Source of the DNA: an uncultured Ignavibacteria bacterium
GTDB taxonomy: Bacteria; Zixibacteria; MSB-5A5; CAIYYT01
Direction of reading: 5' to 3'
Length of the DNA stretch: 64,000 nt
Assembly: GCA_964592145.1 (NCBI GenBank)
Contig: CAZQBX010000006.1
Coordinates: forward strand, 32,789-96,788
Shown here: positions 2,210 through 53,517 of the stretch, one piece after another
Layout of the letters: each line of letters starts with the position of its first letter
Numbering within the stretch: position 1 is the stretch's first letter
Made by a program: the position numbers and the translations under genes
The notes under the pieces: generated by a model
What the model was told of the DNA's origin: nothing
What the model saw: the letters and a program-made list of their open reading frames with translations, nothing else
Databases searched by the model: none

Positions 2210-4000
2210 TTAATCCTCCACGAATTCCTTGCTCACATGAGCCTCAATCCAATTATTCAATACCGCCTCGACCTTTTCAATAGTCGCCAATTTCATGATC
2301 CGTTCGGCGAGTGCCTGGCATTCAGAGTAATCGAGTTCGGCTATCAGCTTTTTCACCCGCGCTACTCGAGGTGGAACTACCGAGAAGCCGTCGAGCCCGA
2401 GTCCCACCAGCAGCGGTACGGCTTCCATTCGCGATGCCATTTCCCCGCACAGTGTCACTGGCACATTGTGTTTCCTGCCGGCGTCGATAGTCATTTTGAT
2501 CAACCTCAGCACGGCCGGATGCAGCTCACGATACAGCCCTGCCACCTTCTTGTTTCCGCGATCGGCGGCCAGCGTGTACTGCACGAGATCGTTGGTGCCG
2601 ATGCTGAAAAAACAAACGTGGCGCGCCAGCTCATCGGCCATTAAGGCAGCCGACGGCACTTCTATCATGATGCCTACATCAATGTTCTCGTCGAACGGAA
2701 TCCCTTCTGCGTGAAGTTCTTTCATGGCGCTATGCAGAATACGCTTGGCTTTGACCAACTCCATCGAGGTCGAAACCATCGGCAGCATGATTTTGACATT
2801 TTTGTTTGTCGAGGCCCGCAAGATCGCGCGAATCTGGGTCTTGAACACGTCCGGCATGTCGAGATCGAGCCGAATACCGCGCCAGCCCAGCGCCGGATTG
2901 ACATCTTCAGAATCGCGGTAATCGCCGACGACCTTATCTGATCCCAGATCATAAACACGAAGCGTCACATTGTTGGGGAAAAACGTCCGTGCAATGTTGG
3001 CATAGATCTTCGCTTGCTCATCTTCGGTCGGGAATTTCATCCGGGTCAAATAGAAAAACTCGGTGCGGTACAAACCCACACCAACCTTGTTGCTCGCCAG
3101 GATTTCGTCGACATCTGTCGGGATTTCAAGATTCGCCAGTACCGCAATTTCCCGGCCATCGCTCGTTGTCGAGGGAATCTTGCCGATTCCACGCAGCTGC
3201 TTTGCGATAACCGTGCGCCGGCGTTTCTGCTCTTCCTTGTACTCTTCAAGCGTGGCCTTCTCGGGATTGACAATAACCCAGCCGCTTTCACCATCGATAA
3301 TGGTCGTTGCATTGTCCGGTATCTTCTCGAGCAATTTGCTGACACCGACGACACCGGGAATCGACAGCGACTTGGCGATCAGCGTCATGTGCGAGGTCTG
3401 CCCGCCCAGCGATGTCGCAAAACCGGGTATATGATACTTGCCCATTAGCACGACTTCGCCCGGAGAGAAATCTTCCGCCAGCGCAATCTTGCCGTCATTG
3501 TTCGACAGCTTGTTGACATGATGGCCGATCAGATACCCGAACACTTTTGCCGCCGTCGCATTGATATCATTCGCCATCTCTTTGAGATAGCTGTCCTGCG
3601 ACTTTCGCAAAGAGGTCAACGTCCGCTGCAGGTGGCGATTATAAACATACTCCGCGTTAAGCTTGAACTTGGCAATGTCATGGCACACCGCGTCAAAAAA
3701 TGCCTTGTCATCCAATATCAGCAACTGAGCCTCAAAAATCTTCGCCAGCTGATTCCCGACCGAACTGTCTGCCTCATCGTGAATCTGCTCCAGCTCCTTT
3801 CGGGCCGATGCGATCGCATTCTGCAGACGATTAACCTCGGCATCTACTTGGTCGGCTTCAATCTGCTGCTTGGTAATGGTGTGCGGCGCGTTGTCGTGTT
3901 TGAAACAGCGGCCAATGGCGATACCGGGTGAAGCAACCAGCCCGCGCAGCCGTATCTCTTTCGCGTGCGTGGAATCTATCTGTTTATCTTTGAGAGGCAT
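2210..4000 (-). CDS. ptsI: Phosphoenolpyruvate-protein phosphotransferase (PTS Enzyme I)
   Basis: 596 aa. It has an N-terminal HPr-binding domain, an active-site His region (GGQTSHMTLIAKSLSIPGVVG) and a C-terminal PEP-utilising domain (RTEFFYL, CGEMA). Confidence 0.9.
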   Translation of the reverse strand: MPLKDKQIDSTHAKEIRLRGLVASPGIAIGRCFKHDNAPHTITKQQIEADQVDAEVNRLQNAIASARKELEQIHDEADSSVGNQLAKIFEAQLLILDDKAFFDAVCHDIAKFKLNAEYVYNRHLQRTLTSLRKSQDSYLKEMANDINATAAKVFGYLIGHHVNKLSNNDGKIALAEDFSPGEVVLMGKYHIPGFATSLGGQTSHMTLIAKSLSIPGVVGVSKLLEKIPDNATTIIDGESGWVIVNPEKATLEEYKEEQKRRRTVIAKQLRGIGKIPSTTSDGREIAVLANLEIPTDVDEILASNKVGVGLYRTEFFYLTRMKFPTEDEQAKIYANIARTFFPNNVTLRVYDLGSDKVVGDYRDSEDVNPALGWRGIRLDLDMPDVFKTQIRAILRASTNKNVKIMLPMVSTSMELVKAKRILHSAMKELHAEGIPFDENIDVGIMIEVPSAALMADELARHVCFFSIGTNDLVQYTLAADRGNKKVAGLYRELHPAVLRLIKMTIDAGRKHNVPVTLCGEMASRMEAVPLLVGLGLDGFSVVPPRVARVKKLIAELDYSECQALAERIMKLATIEKVEAVLNNWIEAHVSKEFVED

Positions 4001-4059
4001 TTTATGTGTTGGATACCTTGAAGCCTGCTTCTGCAGGAAGTCGTTTTTTTCCGCACAAA

Positions 4060-4326
4060 TCAGTCAAACTTCGATGCGATTACTTCGCACATCGTTTTGA
4101 CAGCTTCTTCTTCATCTTCCCCCGAAGCTGTGACCGTAATGTCGGCGCCCATCTCTGCCGCCAACATCATCACACCCATGATCGACTTGCCGTTAACTTC
4201 GAGCCCCTCTTTCTCCAACGTGATATCCGACTTAAAACGAGTTGCCGTCTGCACCACTTTGGCGGAAGGACGCGCGTGCAAGCCTAACTTATTGTTTATC
4301 TTAACCGTTTTAGAGACCAAGTTCAA
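4060..4326 (-). CDS. ptsH: Phosphocarrier protein HPr
   Basis: 88 aa carrying the canonical GLHARPS active-site His motif. Confidence 0.9.
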   Translation of the reverse strand: MNLVSKTVKINNKLGLHARPSAKVVQTATRFKSDITLEKEGLEVNGKSIMGVMMLAAEMGADITVTASGEDEEEAVKTMCEVIASKFD

Positions 4327-4332
4327 ATCCTT

Positions 4333-5454
4333 TTACACTGTGCGGAGAAAAAGTTTCCCCGGAAGCTGCCGCACCAGGCCGGCCATCTCAAGACTAAGAA
4401 GCAGCGACAGAACTTCACCCACCGGTCGATGCACGGAGTTGGATAGACTATCAACTAATTGCGGTTGCATCGAAAGGCTATCATATATGAGTTGTTCTGC
4501 CTCCGGCAGACTGATTCGCGGTCTCTCCTTGGCAGCTGTTCGGGAACGCGGATCGATCCCGAGCGCCAACAACACATCTGCCGCCTGGGTGACGGGAATC
4601 GCTCCCTGTTTGATCAGTTCGTTGGAACCGTGCGACGGCGTCGAGGTGATATTCCCCGGAACAGCAAAAACCTCGCGGTTTTGGTCAATCGCATGCTGCG
4701 CCGTGACCAATGCACCGGAGCCCTTCCGCGCTTCGACCACGATCACGCCCCTGGAAATACCCGAGATGATCCGGTTTCTCGCGGGAAAATTGAACTTCTC
4801 CGGCCGCGTCCCAAACTCAAACTCGGTAACGACCGCACCTGAACCGGCAACTGCTTCATACAATCCCTTATGCTCAGGCGGATAAACCACATCCAGCCCG
4901 CATCCCAGCACCCCGATAGTCCGCCCGCCGCCGGCAAGTGCCGTTTGGTGCGCTATCGAGTCAATTCCCCGCGCCAGCCCCGACACGATCGTCAGCCCTT
5001 GCTTGCAGAGATCTCTTACCAGCAGCTCGGTGACCTGTCGTCCATACTCACTGCTCATCCGACTGCCGACAATTGCAACAGCCAAGCGGTCTTCAGGCCG
5101 GAAGTCTCCCTTCACAATCAGAAACGGCGGCGAGTCATAAATGCGCTTGAGATGTTCTGGATAGTCATCGTCGAAAATAGTAACCAAGTGTGCATTATGG
5201 CGTTCAAGTTTGCCAAGTTGCTCCTCGGCATGCTTCTCATCAACCTGGTCTTTGAGAGCCTTGACCACCTTCTCGCCGATTTCCGGGACTCCATTTAGCT
5301 CTTTTGGCGAAGCCTCCAGCACCGCTTGCGGCGATCCGAAATGCTTTACCAGCGCGACATAGCGCACCACTCCGATTCCCGGAACAGTATTGAGCGCAAA
5401 CCACCAGTAACGCGGATCATTCCGAAGCGACATCGCTATCCAACCTGGATTCAA
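4333..5454 (-). CDS. dprA: DNA-processing protein DprA (Smf)
   Basis: 373 aa with a Rossmann-like DprA core (GLARGIDSIAHQTAL, VLGCGLDVVYP) and a C-terminal winged-helix-like tail. Its start overlaps the obg stop. Confidence 0.85.
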   Translation of the reverse strand: MNPGWIAMSLRNDPRYWWFALNTVPGIGVVRYVALVKHFGSPQAVLEASPKELNGVPEIGEKVVKALKDQVDEKHAEEQLGKLERHNAHLVTIFDDDYPEHLKRIYDSPPFLIVKGDFRPEDRLAVAIVGSRMSSEYGRQVTELLVRDLCKQGLTIVSGLARGIDSIAHQTALAGGGRTIGVLGCGLDVVYPPEHKGLYEAVAGSGAVVTEFEFGTRPEKFNFPARNRIISGISRGVIVVEARKGSGALVTAQHAIDQNREVFAVPGNITSTPSHGSNELIKQGAIPVTQAADVLLALGIDPRSRTAAKERPRISLPEAEQLIYDSLSMQPQLVDSLSNSVHRPVGEVLSLLLSLEMAGLVRQLPGKLFLRTV

Positions 5455-9342: not shown

Positions 9343-10482
9343 CTACCCCTCACACGGCGCCGGTCCGCCGGCAAAGATGTGATTGATCAAATACACCGCA
9401 TCAGAAATCGTTATCACACTGTCAAGATTGACATCCCCAGAGACCAGTGGCGCCGGAGGCGCACCACCAGCAAACACATAATTGATCAGGTAAACCGCGT
9501 CCGAGATATTGACAACATCACTCCCATCCACATCCCCGCACCGATAGTATTCCTCAAAACGAATCAACATCTGCGTCAGCGATGTCAACATGGACCACGT
9601 GTCGACCATCATGAAAACTGTCCCTTCTGGCAAGCTCACCCCCCTGACTCCATACTCATGCCCAAGACTGTCCACCGCCTTTGCCAAGCACTCCGTCGTC
9701 GGTGGGCAAGTCAAATTCAGAGCAAATCCGCTCCCAGCGACACCTCCCGGATTGAGATTGATATTCACCCGCAAGCTTTCGGGCAGGGTAAAACTCAATA
9801 ACAAATCCTCACCATTATCGTGAGCACCAAGACATGTTTGATTGTAGTTGTCCTCCGAACCACTCGTCATCTCCGGTCCGATTGTGAGGGGAAGATCCGC
9901 TCGACTCAGCGTGTAGAACAACGGCAGATCGCAACTGACGCCCCACGGATCGGGATAGAAGCGAGTAATCTGCAATTCAAACTCCGGAATACAATTCGGC
10001 GACGGCCAGGTATCGACCATAATGTAATAGGTGCCGATATCCAAGAAGACATGGTTGATATATTGCGGCTGCCCGCTGCTGCCTGTGCTAAATGCCAGGC
10101 AGTCGTTATCGGGCGGACAACTATTGTCGATGGCAAAACCGGCCCATCCGGTTCCTTTGGGATCGAGCCGCAAGTAGGCATGCATCGGCTGTTGCACTTC
10201 AAGCTGAATGAGGTAATCCTCACCGCCATCGTAACTGCCGAGACAAGTCGAACTGTAATCATTATTGTGTAAACAAGTCGACAGTCCAGACAAAGTCATC
10301 TGGTCAAGCCACAGCGGAAAGACAACGTACTGCGGAATGTCGCAATTGATGCCATCCATCGTTGGAATAGTCGTATCGCGAGCGGCCAAATCTTCGCCCC
10401 GTAATGCGGTACCTTGAAGAAAAACTAGTGCGGCAATCAGAAGCGCTACTACTCTGAATTTCCACCGATGCGGGAATTTCAT
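9343..10482 (-). CDS. Secreted protein with two tandem Cys-containing beta-sandwich-like modules and a C-terminal dockerin-like repeat pair
   Basis: Start chosen at MKFPHRW, with GGAGGG 7 nt upstream. It has a signal peptide and two ~130-aa internal repeats (TCLG.YD.GED...CPP..DCLA). The C-terminus has two GDV(D/N)xDxxIxISDAVYLINxxFAGG repeats, the type I dockerin pattern. Confidence 0.6.
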   Translation of the reverse strand: MKFPHRWKFRVVALLIAALVFLQGTALRGEDLAARDTTIPTMDGINCDIPQYVVFPLWLDQMTLSGLSTCLHNNDYSSTCLGSYDGGEDYLIQLEVQQPMHAYLRLDPKGTGWAGFAIDNSCPPDNDCLAFSTGSSGQPQYINHVFLDIGTYYIMVDTWPSPNCIPEFELQITRFYPDPWGVSCDLPLFYTLSRADLPLTIGPEMTSGSEDNYNQTCLGAHDNGEDLLLSFTLPESLRVNINLNPGGVAGSGFALNLTCPPTTECLAKAVDSLGHEYGVRGVSLPEGTVFMMVDTWSMLTSLTQMLIRFEEYYRCGDVDGSDVVNISDAVYLINYVFAGGAPPAPLVSGDVNLDSVITISDAVYLINHIFAGGPAPCEG

Positions 10483-10591
10483 CGGCCTACCCTCCACATG
10501 ATGACCGAAATGCAATAGCTACACGATTCGCGGCTGTCGGATTAATACGTCAATAAAATATACCATTATCTCCCCTTTGTCAAGCTCCGTA

Positions 10592-10617
10592 GGGTGGGTC
10601 TCCTTGCCGAAATCTCG
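10592..10617. repeat. Type 3 short intergenic repeat (second copy)
   Basis: ~22/25 identity to 9197-9221. It is followed by gacggagaccc, which can pair with gggtctcc. Confidence 0.45.
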
Positions 10618-10695
10618 TGACCTTTCAAGTCGCTCTGACGGAGACCCGCCGCAACCACTATCTGTCACCCATGTCCCTGGTCCAAGCCCTGCGAA

Positions 10696-10750
10696 ATTCC
10701 CCCCTCGAGAGGGGTGGCTTCCCGACGAAGTCGGGAAGACGGGGTGTGTC
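10696..10750. repeat. Structured intergenic repeat, type 1 (copy A)
   Basis: attcccccctcgagagggg (6-bp hairpin) + cttcccgac-gaa-gtcgggaag (9-bp hairpin) + gacggggtgtgtc. Confidence 0.6.
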
Positions 10751-10811
10751 TTTCATGAGCTTCAAGAATCACAGCGCTCTACTGTGGGTTCGACTTCAGC
10801 CGAACAACCCC

Positions 10812-11879
10812 CTAATACTCCTTCAACTTCTCCTGCCCGCTCAAGTATCGCACTCCCGCCGCCGCCAACGCTTCCATCTCAAACTCGCCGCCCACGACAA
10901 TCACCTTGCCGAGGAATCCGATATACTTGCTGATCTCATCAACCAATCTCTGCGATTTCGCCATCCCGCCCGTCAAGACAATCGCCTCATACTTGCCGCG
11001 CAGTACCACCGCCGCCTGCCCGATCTCCTTGGCAACCTGATACGCCATCGCGTTGAAATACAACAGCGCCTTCTCGTCGCCGGCGCGGATCATCCTCTCG
11101 CACTCGCGTAGATCCGCCGCACCGATATATGCCACCAGCCCCGACTTGCGTGACAGCTTGTCGAGCATCTCTTTTTCTGTGAACTTGCCCGAGAAGCACA
11201 ACTTCACCAGCGGTCCCACTGGAAGCGCTCCCGCTCGATCAGGCGAAAACGGCCCCATCCCCAACAGCGCATCATTGACATCGACCACGCGGCCGCCCTC
11301 CAGTGCCGCTACCGACACCCCACCGCCCATGTGCGCGCAGACGTAGTTGACCTCTTCGAGCTTCTTGCCGATCTTCGCGGCCTCCCGACGGCACACTTCC
11401 TTGATATTCAACGCATGCACCCGGCACTTGCGTTCGATCTCCGGGATACCCGACACCCTCGCGATGTCGGTAAAATTGTCGACCGTGATCGGATCGGAAA
11501 TGAAGCACGGTACACCGAGCTTCTGCCCGAAGTGATGCGCAATGATTGCCCCCAGATTCGAGGCATGATTCGAGTACTTCATCGTCTGTAAATCAGACAG
11601 CATCTGCTCACTGATTGCATACGACCCGCCAGTGAGCGGTTTGACCGGCGCCCCGCGGCCGACCACGGCCGCAATCTGCTTCAAGTCGATCTTCGTCGAG
11701 TCCAGCCATTCATTGATTGCCGTCAACCGGAAATCCAGTGAGTCGGCGACATTGTCGAATTGCGCGAGATCGTGGGCATCGTGCCGGATGCCTTCTTCCG
11801 CGACTTTCTTTTCCCCATCGAACACCGCAACTTTCGTCGATGTCGACCCGGGATTGATGATGAGAAGGTAGTTGGGCAT
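10812..11879 (-). CDS. buk: Butyrate kinase (acetate/butyrate kinase family)
   Basis: 355 aa with N-terminal LIINPGSTSTK and the typical butyrate kinase length. It sits downstream of iorAB on the same strand. Confidence 0.85.
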   Translation of the reverse strand: MPNYLLIINPGSTSTKVAVFDGEKKVAEEGIRHDAHDLAQFDNVADSLDFRLTAINEWLDSTKIDLKQIAAVVGRGAPVKPLTGGSYAISEQMLSDLQTMKYSNHASNLGAIIAHHFGQKLGVPCFISDPITVDNFTDIARVSGIPEIERKCRVHALNIKEVCRREAAKIGKKLEEVNYVCAHMGGGVSVAALEGGRVVDVNDALLGMGPFSPDRAGALPVGPLVKLCFSGKFTEKEMLDKLSRKSGLVAYIGAADLRECERMIRAGDEKALLYFNAMAYQVAKEIGQAAVVLRGKYEAIVLTGGMAKSQRLVDEISKYIGFLGKVIVVGGEFEMEALAAAGVRYLSGQEKLKEY

Positions 11880-11974
11880 ATGTTCGTCCTCTATTACTTA
11901 GCTGGTCCGTACGCCCGATTCGCAACGAAGCGTCGAACCCGACAATAGACAATGCTATTTCTCAACACGGCTTC

Positions 11975-12076
11975 ATTCCCCTCTTGAGAGGGATGGCTCG
12001 GACGCCCGAAGGATGAGGGCGAACGAGACGGGGTGTGTTTCCCACTCTCCCCTGGCGAGACGGGTAGGGGTGAGGG
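11975..12076. repeat. Type 1 repeat (copy B) followed directly by a type 2 repeat, between iorB and buk
   Basis: Type 1 portion 11975-12038: attcccctcttgagaggg...ctcggacgcccgaaggatgagggcgaacgag...gacggggtgtgt. Type 2 portion 12039-12076: ttcccactctcccctggcgagacgggtaggggtgagggc. Confidence 0.6.
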
Positions 12077-12078
12077 CT

Positions 12079-12681
12079 TTACTTCGCCACTACTCCCAAA
12101 TGAATCCCCCGCCCTCGTGCAAACGCCTCCAAATTCACCGCGACGAACTTCTCCTTCACCAGCGACTTGATCACATCCACCCACAGCTTCTCTTCAAACG
12201 GAAGCAGATTCGCCAGCACACCGATCAGAATCGTATTAACCAGTCGCGGATTACCCAGCTCGCCCGCGATCTTGTCGGCTTCGACATCGATCACGTTATG
12301 TGCCTTGTTTTTCAAATCGGCAATCGCGTCGTCGGGGTAGTGGAACTCCTTCGATGAGGTCACAATCGCCGGCACCAACGTCGTATGCGACACAATAGCC
12401 GTTCCCGACTTCTTCATCCATCCGACAAAACGCAGCGCTTCCGCCTTCTCGAATCCCATCAAGATATCAACCTCGCCCTGCTGGATCGTCGGCGAATAAA
12501 CCTTCTTGCCGATCCGCACATGCGAGGTCACCACGCCGCCGCGCTGCGACATGCCGTGGATCTCCGACTTCTTGACATCCAGCCCGGCATGCATTGCGAC
12601 CTCGGAAATGATCTCGCTCGCCAGAAGCACGCCCTGCCCGCCGACACCGACAATGAGAATATTGTAAAACTGTTCAGACAT
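12079..12681 (-). CDS. iorB: Indolepyruvate:ferredoxin oxidoreductase subunit beta (2-oxoacid:Fd oxidoreductase gamma-like)
   Basis: 200 aa with N-terminal ILIVGVGGQGVLLAS, the POR gamma/IorB fold. It lies immediately downstream of iorA. Confidence 0.8.
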   Translation of the reverse strand: MSEQFYNILIVGVGGQGVLLASEIISEVAMHAGLDVKKSEIHGMSQRGGVVTSHVRIGKKVYSPTIQQGEVDILMGFEKAEALRFVGWMKKSGTAIVSHTTLVPAIVTSSKEFHYPDDAIADLKNKAHNVIDVEADKIAGELGNPRLVNTILIGVLANLLPFEEKLWVDVIKSLVKEKFVAVNLEAFARGRGIHLGVVAK

Positions 12682-12692
12682 TTCTTAACTCC

Positions 12693-14471
12693 TCACGCTT
12701 TCGCAAACTGGCTTTTGAGCAGGATCGCCTCGGTCGGGCAAATCTGCGCGCACAACGTGCAGCCCGTACAGAGTGTCTCATCGATGATCGCTTTCGGATG
12801 TCCGCGTTCGTTGGTCTCGTTGGCCGCCGCAATTGCCGGACAAGAAATCCTGAAGCACGCCGAACAGCCGTTGCACAATTCCAGATCGATCTGATACGGC
12901 TCATCCATGATCCGTTTCGGCATCAGCACGCAGGGCCGCGAGGTCAGTATCACCGACGGTCCCGGCGTTGCCATCTGGCGTTTCACACACTCAAGCGTCG
13001 CCTCGAAATCGTAGGCATCCACTTCCTCAAAATTCTTCACACCGAGCGCTTTCACGAGTTCGTGAATATCCGTCCGCCTGACCGGATCGCCCATCAGCGT
13101 CTTGCCGGTGCCGGGATGTTCCTGCCCGCCCGTCATCGCCGTCGCGCGATTGTCGAGAATGATCACCGTCACGTTCGACTGATTGTAAACCGCATCCAGC
13201 AGCCCCGTAATTCCCGAATGGAAAAACGTAGAGTCGCCGATCACCGCCACAGTTCCCGTCGCCGAGCCTTGCACCTTTTCCATTCCAATCGCATTGCCAA
13301 TCGACGCCCCCATGCAGATGCAAGTATCCAGCGCATTCAGCGGCTTGAGTACCCCGAGCGTGTAACAACCGATATCTCCCGTCACCGCAACACCAAGCTT
13401 CTTCAGCGCCATAAATGCCCCGCGATGCGGACACCCCGGACAAAGCACCGGTGGACGCGGGAATAAGTCTTCCTGCGTTATTTCCGGCACGACAATCTTG
13501 TCAATCAGGCCGGCTTCTTTCAATCCCCTAGCTACTCGCGAAGGCGACAACTCGCCCAGCGCCCCGAAATACTTCTTCCCCTCAACCTTGATTCCAGCGG
13601 CTTTGATCTGATCTTCATACACCGGTTCGAGCTCTTCCACAACGAGAGTGATATCATGTGCCGCGACAAACTGTCGGATACCATCCAATGGCAGCGGATA
13701 GCCAAATCCAATCTTGTAGTAGTCAAACTGCGGCGCCACTTCCTTGGCATATTGGTAAGCCACTCCGCCGGTGATGATCCCGACCTTGGAGCCGTTTGAT
13801 TCGATGTAGTTGAACGGTGTTTGCTCGGAGTACTTCGCGAGGTCGATGAGCCTTTGCTCGACAACAACGTGACGCACACGCGCATTCGAAGGTATCATCA
13901 CGTACTTTTCCGGATTCTTCACGAACTTGCGTTCCTGTGGATGCAGCGGCTCGATAACCTCGACAATTCCCATCGTGTGCGAAATCCGCGTCGTCATCCG
14001 CAACATCACCGGCGTATCGTAGCGCTCGGAAATCTCATAAGCCGCTACCAGCATGTCCTTCGATTCCTGCGAATCGGAAGGTTCCAGAAACGGGATATTC
14101 GCAAAGCGCGCGAAAATCCGGTTGTCCTGCTCATTCTGCGACGAGTGCATCTCGGGGTCGTCCGCCGACACCACCACGAACCCGCCGTTGACGCCGGTAT
14201 ACGCAAATGTCATCAGCGGATCGGCCGCGACATTCAGTCCGACATGCTTCATCGTTACCAGTGCTCGTGCTCCGCCAATCGAAGCCCCGATTCCCACTTC
14301 GAAGGCCACCTTCTCGTTCGGCGACCATTGCGAATAGACCGAGCGGTGACGTTCGGCCATAGTCTCGAGAATCTCAGTCGAGGGCGTCCCCGGATACCCG
14401 ACCGCCATCTTGACCCCGGCCTCATAAGCACCCCGCGCGACCGCTTCATTGCCCGACAAAAGTTGTTTCAT
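12693..14471 (-). CDS. iorA: Indolepyruvate:ferredoxin oxidoreductase subunit alpha
   Basis: 592 aa with a TPP-binding region (GDSTFFHSGITGLL) and two C-terminal 4Fe-4S ferredoxin motifs (CNGCSAC...CP and CTGCTLCAQICP). Confidence 0.85.
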   Translation of the reverse strand: MKQLLSGNEAVARGAYEAGVKMAVGYPGTPSTEILETMAERHRSVYSQWSPNEKVAFEVGIGASIGGARALVTMKHVGLNVAADPLMTFAYTGVNGGFVVVSADDPEMHSSQNEQDNRIFARFANIPFLEPSDSQESKDMLVAAYEISERYDTPVMLRMTTRISHTMGIVEVIEPLHPQERKFVKNPEKYVMIPSNARVRHVVVEQRLIDLAKYSEQTPFNYIESNGSKVGIITGGVAYQYAKEVAPQFDYYKIGFGYPLPLDGIRQFVAAHDITLVVEELEPVYEDQIKAAGIKVEGKKYFGALGELSPSRVARGLKEAGLIDKIVVPEITQEDLFPRPPVLCPGCPHRGAFMALKKLGVAVTGDIGCYTLGVLKPLNALDTCICMGASIGNAIGMEKVQGSATGTVAVIGDSTFFHSGITGLLDAVYNQSNVTVIILDNRATAMTGGQEHPGTGKTLMGDPVRRTDIHELVKALGVKNFEEVDAYDFEATLECVKRQMATPGPSVILTSRPCVLMPKRIMDEPYQIDLELCNGCSACFRISCPAIAAANETNERGHPKAIIDETLCTGCTLCAQICPTEAILLKSQFAKA

Positions 14472-14514
14472 CGTTATCTCGCTTTATGTAGAAAAGTACA
14501 AATCATCATCGTCG

Positions 14515-14583
14515 TATTCTCCCCTCGCCCGCTTGCGGGAGAAGGGCTGGGCCGAAGGTCCCGTCCTGCGGGAGGTGAGGGCC
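14515..14583. repeat. Type 2 repeat (copy in the iorA upstream region)
   Basis: tctcccctcgcccgcttgcgggagaagggc...ggaggtgagggc, sharing the tcccctc...gggag...ggtgagggc frame with 12039-12076 and 52761-52799. Confidence 0.5.
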
Positions 14584-14674
14584 TGATTCCTTGCCGCACA
14601 ACCACAATCAACACATCCCGTCTTCGAGTCTCATACTTCGACAAGAGGGGAATTGACTGACTGGACTTTCGTTG

Positions 14675-14736
14675 ATTCCCCTCTGGAGAGGGGTGTCCCG
14701 CGTCCGACGAAGGAGGGCGCGGGACGGGGTATGTCT
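14675..14736. repeat. Type 1 repeat (copy C)
   Basis: attcccctctggagagggg + gtcccgcg-tccgacgaaggagg-cgcgggac + ggggtatgt. The second stem has a different sequence from other copies but keeps the pairing. Confidence 0.6.
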
Positions 14737-14864
14737 GCGGGCCTCGCAGAAACAGCCCTGTCCGGTATCCACACCAATCCACCAACCTCGATGTGAATCT
14801 TTTCACAAATTAAGAGAATAACAGGATGAGAGCAACCCTTTTTTGCGGTGTTTTTAGGTGGTTC

Positions 14865-16544
14865 CTACCCTTTCACAATCTTCCTATACCGGTTCCGTCT
14901 GTTCTCAAACGGCTTGCCGCCCAGCTCACGCTTGTGCCAGTCTTCATATTCGCGATAGTTGCCCTCAAACCACCGCACATTGCCCTCGCCTTCGAACACA
15001 ATCAAGTGCGTGCAAATACGATCAAGGAAGAACCTGTCGTGGCTGATCACCATGGCACAACCCTTGAAGTTCATGATCGCCTCTTCCAGATTGCGCAGCA
15101 TATTCACATCGAGATCATTCGTCGGTTCGTCCAGAAGCAGCATGTTGCCGCCCGCCTTGAGCACCTTGGCCAAATGCGCACGGTTGCGCTCGCCGCCTGA
15201 CAACTCGTTCACCATTTTCTGCTGATCGGTCCCTTTGAACCCGAATCGCGCCAGATACTGCCGGATCGGAACTTCCAGCTTGCCCAGCATCACATTGTCG
15301 AGTCCGTCGCCGATCTCTTCGATCAAACTCACAGCCCCCTTGAACGAGTCGCGCTCCTGGTCAACGTATGCCAGTTGCACCGTCGCTCCGACTGTGACTT
15401 CGCCCGAGGTCGGCTTCTCCTGCCCGACAATCATCCGGAACATCGTCGTCTTGCCGGTGCCGTTTGGCCCCACCAAACCCACAATCGCCGAACGCGGCAC
15501 GATGAAATTGGCGCCCTTGAAGATCACCCGCTCGCCGTACTGCTTGGACACATTCTTGAACTCAATCACCGACTCGCCCAATTCCGGCCCCGGCGCGATT
15601 ACGATATTCGCGCCGCCTTCTTTGGCAGCAGCTTCTTCGCGCGCTACGAGCTGTTCGTACTCGATGATGCGTGAACGCGTCAATTCCTGCCGGTCGCGAT
15701 TCGACATCTTGATCCACGCTAACTCGCGATTAAGCATCCGCGAGCGCGGCGTCTCTTTCTTCTCATCGCCGGTAATCTTTGAGAGCTTCTGCTCCAGCCA
15801 CGAAGTGTAATTCCCCGAATACGGGATTCCGTACCCGCCCTCAAGTTCCAGAATCCATTTGGTAATATTGTCGAGGAAATACCGGTCATGCGTCACGATG
15901 ATCACCGTCCCCGGATAATCCTTGAGTTGCTCTTCCAGCCAGTCGACCGTCTCCGCATCGAGATGGTTCGTCGGTTCATCCAACAGCAGCAAATCCGGCC
16001 GCTCCAACAGCGCCTTGCATAGCGCCACCCGCCGCTTCTCTCCGCCCGACAGCGTCTCAACGATGCGGTCATCTTCCGGGAGACACAACGCATCCGCCGC
16101 CTGACGGATCGCGACGTCGAGATTCCAGGCGTCGGCGGCGTCAAGCTGCTCCTGCAGTTCGCCCAGCCTGTCCATCAACTTCTGCATTTTATCGTCCGGC
16201 ATCTCATCGCCCATCTTTGCCGTGATCTCGTTGTATTCGTTCATCATCGTCGTGACCTTGCCGAACGCCTGCTCGACAACGGTGCGAACCGTCGCCTTTT
16301 CGTCTAACAGCGGTTCTTGCATCACGATTCCGGAACGGAAATTGCCAATCAGCTTTGCCGTCCCTTGATAGGCATCATCCATACCCGCCATGATCTTGAG
16401 TACCGTCGACTTGCCCGAACCGTTTTCGCCGACGATTCCAATCTTGGCACCCGGGAAAAAACTCAAATTGATGTTCCGCAGGACCTGTTTCTGCCCATAG
16501 AACTTGTTCAGCCCCAACATTGTGAAAATGTATTGTTCAGCCAT
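14865..16544 (-). CDS. ettA: ABC-F ATPase, energy-dependent translational throttle EttA
   Basis: 559 aa with two ABC ATPase cassettes (GENGSGKST and GPNGTGKTT), the ABC-F architecture, and an EttA-like N-terminus (MAEQYIFTM). Confidence 0.85.
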   Translation of the reverse strand: MAEQYIFTMLGLNKFYGQKQVLRNINLSFFPGAKIGIVGENGSGKSTVLKIMAGMDDAYQGTAKLIGNFRSGIVMQEPLLDEKATVRTVVEQAFGKVTTMMNEYNEITAKMGDEMPDDKMQKLMDRLGELQEQLDAADAWNLDVAIRQAADALCLPEDDRIVETLSGGEKRRVALCKALLERPDLLLLDEPTNHLDAETVDWLEEQLKDYPGTVIIVTHDRYFLDNITKWILELEGGYGIPYSGNYTSWLEQKLSKITGDEKKETPRSRMLNRELAWIKMSNRDRQELTRSRIIEYEQLVAREEAAAKEGGANIVIAPGPELGESVIEFKNVSKQYGERVIFKGANFIVPRSAIVGLVGPNGTGKTTMFRMIVGQEKPTSGEVTVGATVQLAYVDQERDSFKGAVSLIEEIGDGLDNVMLGKLEVPIRQYLARFGFKGTDQQKMVNELSGGERNRAHLAKVLKAGGNMLLLDEPTNDLDVNMLRNLEEAIMNFKGCAMVISHDRFFLDRICTHLIVFEGEGNVRWFEGNYREYEDWHKRELGGKPFENRRNRYRKIVKG

Positions 16545-23136: not shown

Positions 23137-23291
23137 CATTCCCGCAAAGGGGCGCGTTGAAAAACCGTCCAGTACTGTCATCCTGAGCGCAGCGAAGGAT
23201 CTGTTAGTTTTGCGTAACAACGGCTACCAGATCTTTCACATCGTTCAGAATGACACAAGGGGTGTCTCAACAGTCCCGAAGGCGGGAATCC
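23137..23291. repeat. Palindromic MITE-like repeat, family SFAALRMT (copy 1)
   Basis: Terminal inverted repeats cattcccgc...gcgggaatcc with an internal long imperfect palindrome (gtcatcctgagcgcagcgaaggatct ... agatctttcacatcgttcagaatgac). It lies between convergent genes. Confidence 0.6.
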
Positions 23292-50211: not shown

Positions 50212-50368
50212 CATTCCCGCGAAGGGGAGTGTTGAAAAACTCGAACTTTGTCATTCTGAGCGCAGCGAAGAATCTACAGGTTGTTCAACAATAAAGGCAA
50301 CAGATCCTTCGCTACGCTCAGGATGACAGTGATAGGGACTTTTTCAACAGTCCCGAAGGCAGGAATCC
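50212..50368. repeat. Palindromic MITE-like repeat, family SFAALRMT (copy 2)
   Basis: Same TIRs (cattcccgc / gcaggaatcc) and internal palindrome gtcattctgagcgcagcgaagaatct ... agatccttcgctacgctcaggatgac as copy 1. It lies between convergent genes. Confidence 0.6.
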
Positions 50369-50393: not shown

Positions 50394-51857
50394 CTACTCA
50401 TTCCTCAACGACTCCACCGGATCCAACCGCGCCGCCCTTCGCGCCGGATAATATCCTGCAAGCAAACTCACCACGATTCCAAACCCCAGCGCAATCCCGA
50501 TCAGCCACCACGGCGTCGCAAAAAGTTCGATCGCCTCAACACCCTCTCGCCGCATAAATGACTGCGCCACAAACGACGCGACCCGCGCAATGCCCCACCC
50601 GACGATGATGCCAAATGTCGCCCCCAGCGTGCCAATGGCCGCCGCTTCGTACAAGAATATCCGCCGAATATCCGAATCATCGGCGCCCAGTGCCTTGAGC
50701 ACGCCGATCTCCCGCCGCCGCTCCAGAATCGACATGATCATCGTATTCGCGATCCCTAGCGAGGCCGTCACCAGCGCAATCAAACCGATCATGCCCAGCG
50801 CCATGTCAAAATAAATAAACATCTTCTGAATCTCTTCGAACTCCTCGGCGAAACTGTAGGTCTTGAAACCGAGCGCCTTCACTGAATCGCGTACCGACTT
50901 GAACGGCGTGTGCGGGTCAAAGTCGAGAGTCACCTTGGGATACGACTTGCCCTCCTTCGGAGCAAACATGTCTGGCAAACTGCCGGAACTGAATGAACTC
51001 ATCAGACTCGCCGGCGACATCGAGATATCGCCGTCGTTCAGCCTGCGCGCCATCGCTAGCGGCAGGATCACCTGTTCAATGCGCATCGGGCTTTCATGCC
51101 GGCCCGGAATGACACCGCTGATCGTCAGCGTCTCCGTCACTACTTCGCGGTTGTTCATCAATCCCGCGTAGAAACGCCGCAATGCCTCCGAGGTCTCCCG
51201 CCGCAACAATCCCATTGCGTAGCCCGGCTCGAAAATCGAATCGCGATCAATCGCGCTTAGTCGTTTGCGAATCGCCCCATCCTTGTCGCTGATAATTGCG
51301 GCCCACGCGCTGTCGATTCGGATCAGCCGGGCGGTAACCACCAGTTTTCTTCCGACAGCCGAGTCTGCTTCGGATATTCCCATTCGCTTGACAAAGTCGC
51401 GCGTCACCACCGCCTGGTGCGCACTGTCATTTTCAAATCGCGTTCCGGCAAGATATTGCGACATTGCCGGCGTTCTGGCTACTTCCGATGATATCGCCTG
51501 CGCGTTCAGGGTCGCCGTGCTGTCGCCAAGTCTGGCATCGATTTGAAAAGCTTCCAATGGATAGGCCAAGCGCACGCCGGGAATCTGCGCCAACAAGGCC
51601 AGCGCCGAATCGTTTAGCACCTTCGCCTTGACACTGTCGCTCCCGTTTTTGTCCTCCTCGGGAAACACCTGCATCGTCGTCAACAGCCCGAACTTCTGGA
51701 ACTGATCATTGACATACTGTTGGTTCCCGGCGCCGAACGAGAGCATCGACACAAATGCCGCAATCGCAATCAGCACTCCGGCCATCGTCAAGATCGAACG
51801 CAGTTTCATGCGCCACAGATTGTCTGCGGCAGCGGCTATCAGATCATATGAGGTCAC
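50394..51857 (-). CDS. ABC transporter permease, FtsX/MacB/LolE-like
   Basis: 487 aa with an N-terminal TM, a large periplasmic domain and a C-terminal FtsX 3-TM bundle. Confidence 0.8.
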   Translation of the reverse strand: MTSYDLIAAAADNLWRMKLRSILTMAGVLIAIAAFVSMLSFGAGNQQYVNDQFQKFGLLTTMQVFPEEDKNGSDSVKAKVLNDSALALLAQIPGVRLAYPLEAFQIDARLGDSTATLNAQAISSEVARTPAMSQYLAGTRFENDSAHQAVVTRDFVKRMGISEADSAVGRKLVVTARLIRIDSAWAAIISDKDGAIRKRLSAIDRDSIFEPGYAMGLLRRETSEALRRFYAGLMNNREVVTETLTISGVIPGRHESPMRIEQVILPLAMARRLNDGDISMSPASLMSSFSSGSLPDMFAPKEGKSYPKVTLDFDPHTPFKSVRDSVKALGFKTYSFAEEFEEIQKMFIYFDMALGMIGLIALVTASLGIANTMIMSILERRREIGVLKALGADDSDIRRIFLYEAAAIGTLGATFGIIVGWGIARVASFVAQSFMRREGVEAIELFATPWWLIGIALGFGIVVSLLAGYYPARRAARLDPVESLRNE

Positions 51858-52549
51858 TGCCGTGCTCCCGAATCTTCGACCACGCGGCCATAATGCATCT
51901 TGATGATCCGGCTGCAGATACTGCGCGCCAGCTCCAGATCGTGCGACACCATCACGACCGTCAACCCCTGGCCGTTTAACTCGGTTAACAATGCCGCAAT
52001 CTGCCGCGCATTTTCATAATCAAGATTTCCCGTCGGCTCATCGGCGAAGATTACTTCCGGCCGCTTGACCAATGCACGTGCAATCGCCACACGCTGTTGT
52101 TCGCCACCCGATAAGGCACTCGGACGATGCTCCAACCGGTCGCCCATTCCCAGGCTCGTCAAGATTTCGCTCGCCCGCTTGTGCCGCTCGTGTCGCGGTG
52201 TGTCGTTGAAATATAAAGCGATTTCGACATTGCGAAGAGCCGTGTGGTGTGGCAGCAGGTTAAATGTCTGGAAGATCATCCCCACTTGGCGCGCGCGATA
52301 TCCGGCAAGATCCCTGCGGCTGAGCGCGCTCAACACCGTATCGCCAACCGCGATACTTCCCGAAGTCGGCGTATCAAGTCCGGCAAGCAGATTCAGCAGC
52401 GTCGACTTACCGGAGCCGGAGGATCCGACAATTCCGACAAATTCACCGCGTGCGATATTGAGACTAATTGAGTCAACCGCGCGAATTTCCTGTGGACCGC
52501 GTTGATAGCTGCGGCAAAGTTCTTTCGTGGAGATCCAGGGTTCGGTCAT
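51854..52549 (-). CDS. ABC transporter ATP-binding protein, LolD/MacB-type
   Basis: 231 aa with Walker [10 protein letters not shown], signature LSGGEQQR and Walker [12 protein letters not shown]. Its stop overlaps the permease start. Confidence 0.85.
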
Positions 52550-52760
52550 AGCACTTGATATAACTCTACGTTTCTATCCACAAATAGTTGCTTCGCCCAA
52601 ACGCCGAATATGCACTCACAAATCGTTGTTCTTTCTTCGACAAAACTGACATCCAACTCCCCGAATAGGTTGGAACCCTCGTCCCGAAGCTCACTGGTGT
52701 TGGGAGCATCTATCCAGAGGGTTCCGACAACTACCGTCTGTGCCCTTCCGCAGTGGCTGT

Positions 52761-52799
52761 TTCCCCTCTCCCTCCGGGAGAGGGGCAGGGGTGAGGGCA
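52761..52799. repeat. Type 2 repeat
   Basis: ttcccctctccc-tcc-gggagagggg (perfect 10-bp hairpin) + caggggtgagggc. Confidence 0.55.
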
Positions 52800-52862
52800 T
52801 TTGCGATTTGCACATTAATGATCAACCTGTCCCTGAAGAAATCGTAACTCGCTCGCGTTATT

Positions 52863-52923
52863 AATTCCCCTCTTGAGAGGGGTGGCTCCGAGCCGAAGAA
52901 TGAGGCTCGGAGACGGGGTGTGT
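52863..52923. repeat. Type 1 repeat (copy D)
   Basis: attcccctcttgagagggg + ctccgagcc-gaagaatga-ggctcggag + acggggtgtgtc. Confidence 0.6.
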
Positions 52924-53058: not shown

Positions 53059-53517
53059 GTGCAATCAAGAGAGGAGTCTGTTTTGGCTTCAGCAAAAAAC
53101 GGCGATACCGTTCGCGTTCATTATACCGGCAAACTTCTTGACGGTACCATCTTCGACAGTTCAGAAGGCAGCGACCCGCTCGAATTCATCCTCGGCCAAC
53201 AGCAGGTCATTGCCGGCTTCGACCGCGCCGTTCTCGGCATGATCATCGGCGCCAAAACCACGGTCACAATCCCGGTTGCCGATGCCTACGGTCCGCGCAA
53301 ACCCGGCTTGGTGCTCGATGTCGATCGCTCGGAATTCCCGCCCGATATCGAACCCCGTATCGGCTTGAATCTACGCATGGAACAAGCTGACGGCTCCACT
53401 GTCAATGTTGCCATCACGAATGTCACGGGCAACATGGTAACCCTCGATGCCAACCATCCCTTGGCTGGCGAAGACCTCGTTTTCGACATCCAACTGGTCG
53501 AAATCGTCGCCGCTTAA
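53059..53517 (+). CDS. slyD: FKBP-type peptidyl-prolyl cis-trans isomerase (SlyD-like)
   Basis: 152 aa with an FKBP fold (VRVHYTGKLLDGTIFDSS) and an inserted IF-domain-like segment. Confidence 0.75.
   Translation: MQSREESVLASAKNGDTVRVHYTGKLLDGTIFDSSEGSDPLEFILGQQQVIAGFDRAVLGMIIGAKTTVTIPVADAYGPRKPGLVLDVDRSEFPPDIEPRIGLNLRMEQADGSTVNVAITNVTGNMVTLDANHPLAGEDLVFDIQLVEIVAA

Follow-up and report, generated by a model that had tools for sequence, protein, structure and literature searches.

The stretch of DNA considered here, referred to below as the window, spans 64,000 nucleotides of contig CAZQBX010000006.1 from an uncultured Ignavibacteria bacterium (assembly GCA_964592145.1, placed among the Zixibacteria in the GTDB lineage) and has a G + C content of 52.9%. 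It includes an iorA-iorB-buk operon on the minus strand, in and around which lie several copies of a short hairpin repeat, the type-1 element, that is the subject of this report. A preliminary description made from the sequence alone had placed four such elements in the window, three of them at the operon, together with a second family of hairpin repeats (type 2), and both families are found where they were placed (Table 1). For the four intact type-1 copies the sequence, the chance controls and a covariance model (E values of 1e-11 to 1e-14) agree, and the stems that had been quoted for them (ctccgagcc/ggctcggag, cttcccgac/gtcgggaag and gtcccgcg/cgcgggac) are correct. The 5' pattern TTCCCCTCNNNAGAGGGG occurs on the plus strand at 10697, 11976, 14676 and 52865, against a chance expectation of 0.03, and the 3' box GACGGGGTGTGT at 10738, 12027, 14723 and 52912, where 0.21 would be expected. 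The covariance model, R1, was built from 40 seeds, 39 of them copies from other genomes and the last being window copy A. An exact protein look-up with the Buk protein of the window gave no record.

Table 1. Repeats and operon genes of the window (positions are those of the 64,000-nt stretch; ORF, open reading frame)
Feature	Position	Strand	Description	Model E value
Type-1 copy A	10696..10749	+	3' of buk, antisense to operon	7e-13
Type-1 copy B	11975..12038	+	iorB/buk spacer	1e-11
Type-1 copy C	14675..14734	+	upstream of iorA	1e-12
Type-1 copy D	52864..52923	+	spacer of divergent ORFs 51854-52549(-) and 53059-53517(+)	1e-14
Type-1, degenerate fifth copy	14611..14653	-	GACGGGATGTGT at 14611-14622(-)	0.87
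Type-2 copy	12039..12080	+	hairpin then GGTAGGGGTGAGGGC; abuts copy B directly	
Type-2 variant	14515..14583	+	extra hairpin GGGCCGAAGGTCCC between G-rich arm and GGAGGTGAGGGC box (read from sequence)	
Type-2 copy	52760..52801	+	TTTCCCCTCTCCC-TCC-GGGAGAGGGG-CA-GGGGTGAGGGC	
iorA	12693-14471	-	ORF; orthologue Pfam POR_N/TPP_enzyme_C	
iorB	12079-12681	-	ORF; orthologue Pfam POR	
buk	10812-11879	-	ORF; orthologue Pfam Acetate_kinase; homologues named butyrate kinase by sources	

A type-1 unit consists, in order, of ATT, a first hairpin P1 (CCCCTC-TNGA-GAGGGG), the dinucleotide TG, a second hairpin P2 and a GGGGTGTGT box, with GGGGTG on both sides of P2. To close P2, the G of TG pairs with the base preceding GGGG, and a G.A pair is often adjacent to this closing pair. 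P2 occupies a linker slot of 0-57 nt overall, which may hold nothing, 2-5 nt, or a hairpin specific to the lineage; the slot is empty (GAGAGGGGTGTGT) in three copies elsewhere, and in the form found in Mucilaginibacter contains only GA, TA or CA. The commonest P2 loops are C(GNA)G triloops, GCGAAGC among them, and loops of this type are unusually stable DNA mini-hairpins. In the window, copy A has a P1 of CCCCCC/GAGGGG with a single mismatch, a P2 of CTTCCCGAC-GAA-GTCGGGAAG and the box GACGGGGTGTGT, copy B has a P2 stem in two tiers with the loop GAAGGATGA, and copy C has a P2 of GTCCCGCGTCC-GACGAAGGA-GGGCGCGGGAC with one T.G pair within.

All five type-1 copies in the window are intergenic, and copies A to C as written run antisense to the three operon genes. 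Followed in the direction of the genes, the locus runs from copy C (reverse) and the degenerate copy (forward) through iorA, iorB, type 2 and copy B (reverse) to buk and copy A (reverse). The degenerate copy and copy C make up an inverted pair (14611-14734) in which the P1 ends oppose each other across a 21-nt spacer. The degenerate copy is internally deleted, with P1 reduced to its 5' half and P2 incomplete, and its counterpart is intact at 1841-1900 of locus L128, from a relative whose Buk protein is 96% identical.

Among all copies collected, 82 distinct P2 sequences of 1-57 nt were found. These fold better than chance, with a mean z of -3.4, and 61 of 78 distinct regions beat at least 95% of their shuffles; the window copies themselves form two hairpins on either strand (z of -2.1 to -4.7). 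The claim that base-pairing in the central hairpin is preserved through changes of sequence is borne out: at the P2 base pairs of alignment A3, 62 cells had changed on both sides as opposed to 19.8 +/- 3.9 after shuffling, and none of 500 shuffles reached 62. The elements are a structured repeat family. The further suggestion that structure is under selection rather than primary sequence is not supported, as P1 and both G-boxes are conserved to the letter across about 16 phyla among the matches listed. P1 is nearly invariant, and in diverged copies its variants are compensated (CCCCCC/GGGGGG, CCCCTTTA/TAAAGGGG and CCCCTTCG/CGAAGGGG).

The P2 stems comprise 480 Watson-Crick pairs, 10 G.T and 4 A.C. 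Such near-perfect palindromes, with about 2% G.T, fit palindromes at the DNA level better than an evolving RNA. The difference between 10 G.T and 4 A.C is too small for calling the strand of action; the conserved G.A beside the closing pair weakly favours the strand as written. Part of the covariation could stem from template-switch or palindrome-correcting replication errors, not selection.

The type-1 element is by no means confined to this genome. A scan with the exact 5' 20-mer, using one genome per species, matched at least 120 loci, and the matches listed fall in some 16 phyla as assigned from record titles: Bacteroidota (including isolates with complete genomes), Ignavibacteria/Chlorobiota, Bacillota, Nitrospinota, Nitrospirota, Acidobacteriota, Zixibacteria, Verrucomicrobiota, Planctomycetota, Gemmatimonadota, Desulfobacterota, Binatia, Cloacimonadota, Atribacterota, Glassbacteria and Pseudomonadota. 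The 3' box formed no part of the search pattern and is still carried by 136 of 142 pattern copies among the matches listed. A covariance-model search finds about 240 copies, 77 of them without a match to the pattern, and the family is far larger than the preliminary description supposed. Most of the 226 copies outside the window are intergenic, and inverted dimers or clusters recur (L045, L072, L025, L119 and the composites of Mucilaginibacter). Only 7 viral contigs match; no plasmid did, though the low-complexity filter may have hurt so short a query. Rfam returned no match at gathering score for the window and 18 element loci, the sole sub-threshold hit being a serC leader (E of 0.24). Full-text literature searches with element strings yielded no relevant paper, and the supplements of papers on REP sequences (repetitive extragenic palindromes) also lack the element.

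Some copies lie within genes. In 12 Ignavibacteria proteins the element lies in frame 0, 58-60 residues before the C-terminus, inside the sorting domain of the type IX secretion system (T9SS), and PF18962 was confirmed for three of these proteins. All sit at one loop of the domain (L004, L026, L037, L050, L062, L074 with two, L100, L108 with two, L114 and L115), where they encode the peptide IPL(L/S)RGV..G(R)GV. Here P2 is 10 or 16 nt and the reading frame is kept. The outer pair of P2 may be T-A, G-C or A-T, the first base of a Ser, Ala or Thr codon co-varying with the third, silent position of a Gly codon, and pairing is kept at the cost of amino-acid changes. These copies show a constraint at the nucleic-acid level operating within coding sequence.

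Clustering of the ORFs near type-1 elements singles out one gene, which encodes a DUF559 protein (PF04480, E of 1e-27 to 1e-30; nearest solved structure 3HRL). In the bracketed arrangement a forward element lies upstream of the gene, a reverse element lies at or over the stop at the 3' end of the ORF, and the G-boxes point inward. Four of the five DUF559 genes in loci selected by the pattern are bracketed in this manner, with the forward element 20-100 nt upstream (L092, L072, L002 and L083, the last of these frameshifted). Only 4 of 844 ORFs in element loci have the bracket, and 3 of these are DUF559. When loci were selected by the protein instead, five of six genes were bracketed (L214, L224, L227, L237 and L245), among them that of an isolate of Aquimarina gracilis (L224) and that of a GC-rich lineage whose ends bear P2; the sixth (L225) is partly bracketed. 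At L225 a reverse end at the DUF559 stop is followed, within 1875-2210, by four tandem units of about 65 nt, in each of which a portion of the element recurs, and a forward copy comes after them. The bracketing ends may be P2-less as well as P2-bearing. In 65 of the 120 closest DUF559 homologues the C-terminus is ...HTPNPSQEGN, the translation of the reverse element. Forward-spacer-reverse pairs that contain no gene share the polarity of the forward-DUF559-reverse units.

From these findings we favour, by what we would judge to be slightly better than an even chance, the view that type-1 elements are gene-less copies, or solo ends, of a selfish DNA element of small size, a DUF559 mini-element. 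The full form would consist of two inverted type-1 units serving as terminal inverted repeats around a DUF559 gene of about 125-140 amino acids, the product of which is Vsr-like with a PD-(D/E)XK fold. Each end would comprise the invariant P1 hairpin, a linker slot and the GGGGTGTGT box pointing towards the gene. The nuclease would recognise the hairpin-plus-box ends at the DNA level, as an extruded hairpin or a single strand, and by analogy with REP-associated tyrosine transposases (RAYTs) and their REP or REPIN sequences it may multiply those ends in trans. The copies in the window would then be mere intergenic passengers, and if they influenced iorAB-buk expression at all, it would be incidentally. 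What has been observed is the common architecture across some 16 phyla, the bracketing of DUF559, the solo copies and pairs, the turnover (see below) and the in-frame copies; mobilisation by the nuclease is an extrapolation from RAYT systems. A broader formulation, offered more tentatively and in our estimation somewhat short of an even chance, is that this is a REPtron-like system on a different nuclease fold, in which DUF559 genes with hairpin ends have seeded solo, paired and in-frame repeats in at least about 16 phyla.

A number of points weigh against the DUF559 mini-element. Neither the 64-kb window nor the loci fetched from its closest relatives contain a DUF559 gene, and the window copies are assigned to the DUF559-bracketing family by sequence only. 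Among 150 more diverse DUF559 representatives only about 14 have element-encoded peptides; the association is strong in one subfamily, mainly of Bacteroidota. Three exact DUF559 proteins (P0286, P0290 and P0310) each have one genomic context across samples. No target-site duplication is evident at the ends of the bracketed units, which include no clean pair of filled and empty sites, and no movement of the element was observed, only presence/absence and decay between relatives. To our knowledge Vsr-like nucleases are not known as transposases. A proteobacterial DUF559 gene (L048, 1900-2830) is flanked by hairpin-plus-G-box repeats (...GAAGGGGT-hairpin-GGGGGCAGTTGTG) that are related yet distinct and have the opposite polarity.

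Finally, the gene could instead have homed into inverted pairs that already existed. On this account DUF559 is a homing-type endonuclease gene inserted in forward-spacer-reverse pairs, and the repeats are spread by another mechanism. The clade of Vsr and DUF559 does contain a homing endonuclease of a group I intron (PMC3424549), short-spacer pairs without a gene have the polarity of the bracket, and DUF559 copies are few relative to repeats. Set against these points, over half of the close homologues include the reverse end in their reading frame, which argues for long co-evolution and not repeated invasion. The two ends of a single gene also often differ in P2, and the spread of the repeats themselves is left unexplained. 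We consider homing an unlikely, though not negligible, account of the bracketed genes.

The preliminary description had proposed that the copies serve the operon, their hairpins stabilising or processing the iorAB-buk mRNA or decoupling segments of it. Three copies are indeed positioned at the 5' region, in the iorB-buk spacer and at the 3' region, and stable hairpins can form on either strand. Some E. coli REPs affect transcripts in these ways. Stabilisation of upstream mRNA by REPs has also been documented (PMC6006769). Other observations count against this role. Across the 226 copies no bias of orientation towards the neighbouring genes is seen (41 sense, 43 antisense, 27 convergent and 19 divergent), and there are no sites resembling intrinsic terminators (GC-rich hairpins with a U/T run) in 10400-14950, where 3.9 would be expected from shuffles. 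Near-perfect stems, unbiased orientation and the lack of terminators together point to a palindrome at the level of DNA, not to an RNA acting from one strand. Moreover, the element adjoins unrelated genes in about 16 phyla among the matches listed, and a role in this one transcript leaves the letter conservation of P1 and the box unexplained.

Comparison of orthologous loci, a check named in the preliminary description, was made with relatives whose Buk proteins are 96%, 88% and 85% identical, and presence/absence polymorphism was seen. The relatives of this Zixibacteria-like lineage are in part labelled Ignavibacteria. The iorB-buk spacer is 199 nt in the window, with copy B present; it is 573 nt in L128 (the 96% relative) and 128 nt in L133 (the 85% relative), both without copy B, and 1320 nt in L131, where copy B occurs twice around an ORF of 250 codons. 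Copy A has an orthologue in L128-L130 with point changes, part of them pairing-breaking, and copy C has one in L128; one copy upstream of iorA, as described above, has decayed. Pairing-breaking changes build up in orthologous copies, and copies have been gained, lost and deleted between close relatives, which argues against an operon-specific RNA role. The comparative pattern is one of turnover and decay, not of regulator conservation, and the proposed function in mRNA stability, processing or decoupling finds no support in it. We regard operon-specific RNA elements as improbable; an incidental effect of the copies on iorAB-buk mRNA may nonetheless occur.

Several further features of these loci deserve mention. 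The 250-aa ORF of L131 has no Pfam family and lies between two direct type-1 copies resembling copy B (3680-5001), an arrangement that looks like a cassette insertion; the same spacer also holds small repeats GTCATTCCCGCGAAAGCGGGAATCC and a GTAG-headed, REP-like GTAGGGGCGCAGCATGCTGCGCCC. In L128, a 108-aa ORF with a UDG match (PF03167) replaces the repeats of the iorB-buk spacer (4469-4795). Upstream of iorA, an unrelated repeat takes the place of type 2 in L128, and L133 has five copies of CTGGATTCCCGCCTTCGCGGGAATGAC (2100-2478) where the window has types 1 and 2, the same spacer being filled by different repeat families in related genomes. Synteny between L130 and L128 stops inside the type-1 copy upstream of iorA (about 1790-1840 of L130), a rearrangement breakpoint within the repeat. 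A composite transposon carrying iorAB-buk was considered and ruled out, given that in L133 the operon keeps its upstream synteny although type-1 copies are absent. In a search for empty sites and target duplications, the four-way alignment of the window with L128-L130 fell apart outside the operon; the sole indel between L128 and L129 is a scaffold gap with Ns.

The type-2 repeats share the plan of type 1, with a C-rich/G-rich hairpin, a short linker and a GGGGTGAGG box. The extra hairpin of the variant upstream of iorA sits in the slot equivalent to the type-1 P2, and the type-1 model aligns one type-2 copy weakly (52760-52796, E of 0.013). A third repeat family, TGTCATCCTGAGCGCAGCGAAGGATCT, occurs in the window at 23176-23202, 50249-50275 and 63195-63221. 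Its unit holds a GCGAAG-type mini-hairpin, and some 40-60 nt downstream of at least two of the copies lies an inverted partner in degenerate form (near 50300-50322 for the copy at 50249). A 36-nt GC-rich hairpin, GCGCGGCAGTCGTCCACGCCTGCCGCG..., at 63055-63090 is 97% identical to positions 4738-4773 of L089, a locus from a metagenome-assembled genome labelled Ignavibacteria, and from this similarity looks like another shared short repeat.

The preliminary description had likened the elements to REPs and bacterial interspersed mosaic elements (BIMEs) or to MITEs (miniature transposable elements with inverted repeats), and this was the right neighbourhood. The classical form of that idea would have the repeats multiplied by a single-copy RAYT, an HUH Y1 transposase, encoded elsewhere in the genome. 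It would account for palindromic, extragenic sequences that occur as inverted dimers and clusters (L045, L072, the Mucilaginibacter composites), and in-frame copies inside genes are known for REPs as well (PMC6006769, PMC3733652). The type-1 unit, however, has neither a GT[AG]G nor a conserved CGTC head or foot. Its 5' end is ATTCCCC, and CGTC is found on the reverse strand only in the subset of copies whose P2 ends in GAC before GGGG.

No RAYT-like ORF was found by regular expressions and phmmer among six-frame ORFs in about 1.1 Mb around some 240 copies, a search restricted to element loci and made with two approximate consensus sequences as queries; a similar sequence was 83% identical to real PF01797 proteins. 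One IS200-like TnpA lies in L115, 4 kb from the element. None of 80 metagenome RAYT loci (L134-L213) contains a type-1 copy. The RAYT genes of the subclass found there are flanked by inverted GGGGTCAGGTCTT... ends, about 50 nt upstream and about 310 nt past the matched core. These ends agree with GGGG[AT][CG]A[CG], the published motif of the inverted repeats that flank TIRYT genes, and 9 of 11 positions match the type-2 box GGGGTGAGGGC. In favour of the RAYT idea, GGGGTGAG of type 2 also conforms to that motif; the type-1 box GGGGTGTG does not, and no Y1 gene is adjacent. A RAYT or IS200 partner was rejected for the loci searched, where no RAYT lies near the copies and RAYT loci carry other ends, and we doubt strongly that the type-1 family is a conventional REP/REPIN system, although a RAYT may lie elsewhere in the genome.

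Least probable of all, and rated very low, is the notion that the elements serve the host as binding or recombination sites of a conserved factor (for chromosome organisation or cassette exchange): P1 as duplex DNA is a 7-2-7 inverted repeat, the L131 ORF lies cassette-like between two direct copies and the L130 breakpoint falls inside a copy, but both of the latter are explained by homologous recombination between repeats, the neighbours show no regulon-like gene association, closely related genomes differ in which copies are present, absent or decayed, and no candidate factor was identified.

The four repeats around iorAB-buk and elsewhere in the window are real, but they are not operon-specific regulators, and structured intergenic hairpins with apparent covariation need a family-wide check before being read as local regulators. 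If the link to DUF559 holds, the consequences reach beyond this locus. DUF559 is a large family (about 29,000 clusters at 50% identity) without known function, routinely annotated as 'very-short-patch-repair endonuclease', and it would gain a testable role, and its first functional context, as a selfish hairpin-repeat nuclease. It would likewise provide a candidate class of partner or mobiliser for REP-like repeats that lack a RAYT, of which the RAYT-less CGTC REPs are an open problem (PMC3733652), and the 'PLSRGE / PSQEG / HTPNP' peptides in metagenome gene calls would be translated repeats. Literature searches found no paper linking DUF559 to repeats; the pairing appears to have no earlier description, and the repeat sequence itself to be unpublished as far as full-text search shows.

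How does the DUF559 mini-element compare with known systems? REPtrons, reportedly treated by Nunvar in 2010 and by Bertels and Rainey in 2011, combine REP, BIME or REPIN sequences with a RAYT (TnpA_REP). They are covered in Di Nocera 2013 (PMC3733652) and Quentin 2018 (PMC6006769). Type-1 elements resemble REPs and REPINs in being short, GC-rich, mostly extragenic palindromes that occur solo, as inverted dimers and in clusters, in having in-frame copies in genes and in turning over between strains, and they resemble REPtrons in that a small single-copy nuclease gene is bracketed by repeats. They differ in lacking the GT[AG]G/CGTC head and in their unit of one invariant and one free hairpin plus a G-box. 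The bracketed gene encodes a PD-(D/E)XK, Vsr-like DUF559 protein and not an HUH Y1 enzyme, and the type-1 core is identical to the letter across phyla, whereas REPs co-diverge with their RAYT.

A parallel in organisation is the TIRtron or TIRYT (Di Nocera 2013; Quentin 2018, as subclass 2.1), which also has a small nuclease gene, terminal inverted repeats with G-runs and moderately abundant gene-less copies. TIRYT ends are GGGGTCAGGTCTT, where type 1 has GGGGTGTGT and type 2 has GGGGTGAGGG; the TIRYT enzyme is a Y1 HUH protein, and the 80 such loci are free of type-1 copies. MITEs offer another comparison: forward-spacer-reverse pairs resemble an internally deleted gene-bearing unit, and both are non-coding, dispersed and polymorphic for presence. 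Unlike MITEs, type-1 elements have no detected DDE transposase partner, DUF559 being the only recurrent bracketed gene, and often occur as single ends, not pairs; no target-site duplication was detected.

Genes that tolerate palindromic repeats in frame are also known from the Rickettsia palindromic elements (RPEs), reportedly the subject of work by Ogata in 2000. No sequence relation to RPEs is seen, and 12 type-1 copies share one T9SS sorting-domain loop in Ignavibacteria. RPE-4 and RPE-6 have themselves been linked to CGTC REPs (PMC3733652). On the side of the protein, the kinship is with Vsr and the homing endonuclease I-Bth0305I, the bracketed protein being of the same clade (PF04480; 3HRL). 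We know of no report of hairpin terminal repeats or gene-less repeat families for either of these enzymes. The clade, named 'VSR, DUF559, DUF2726', includes both Vsr and the Vsr-like I-Bth0305I (PMC3424549).

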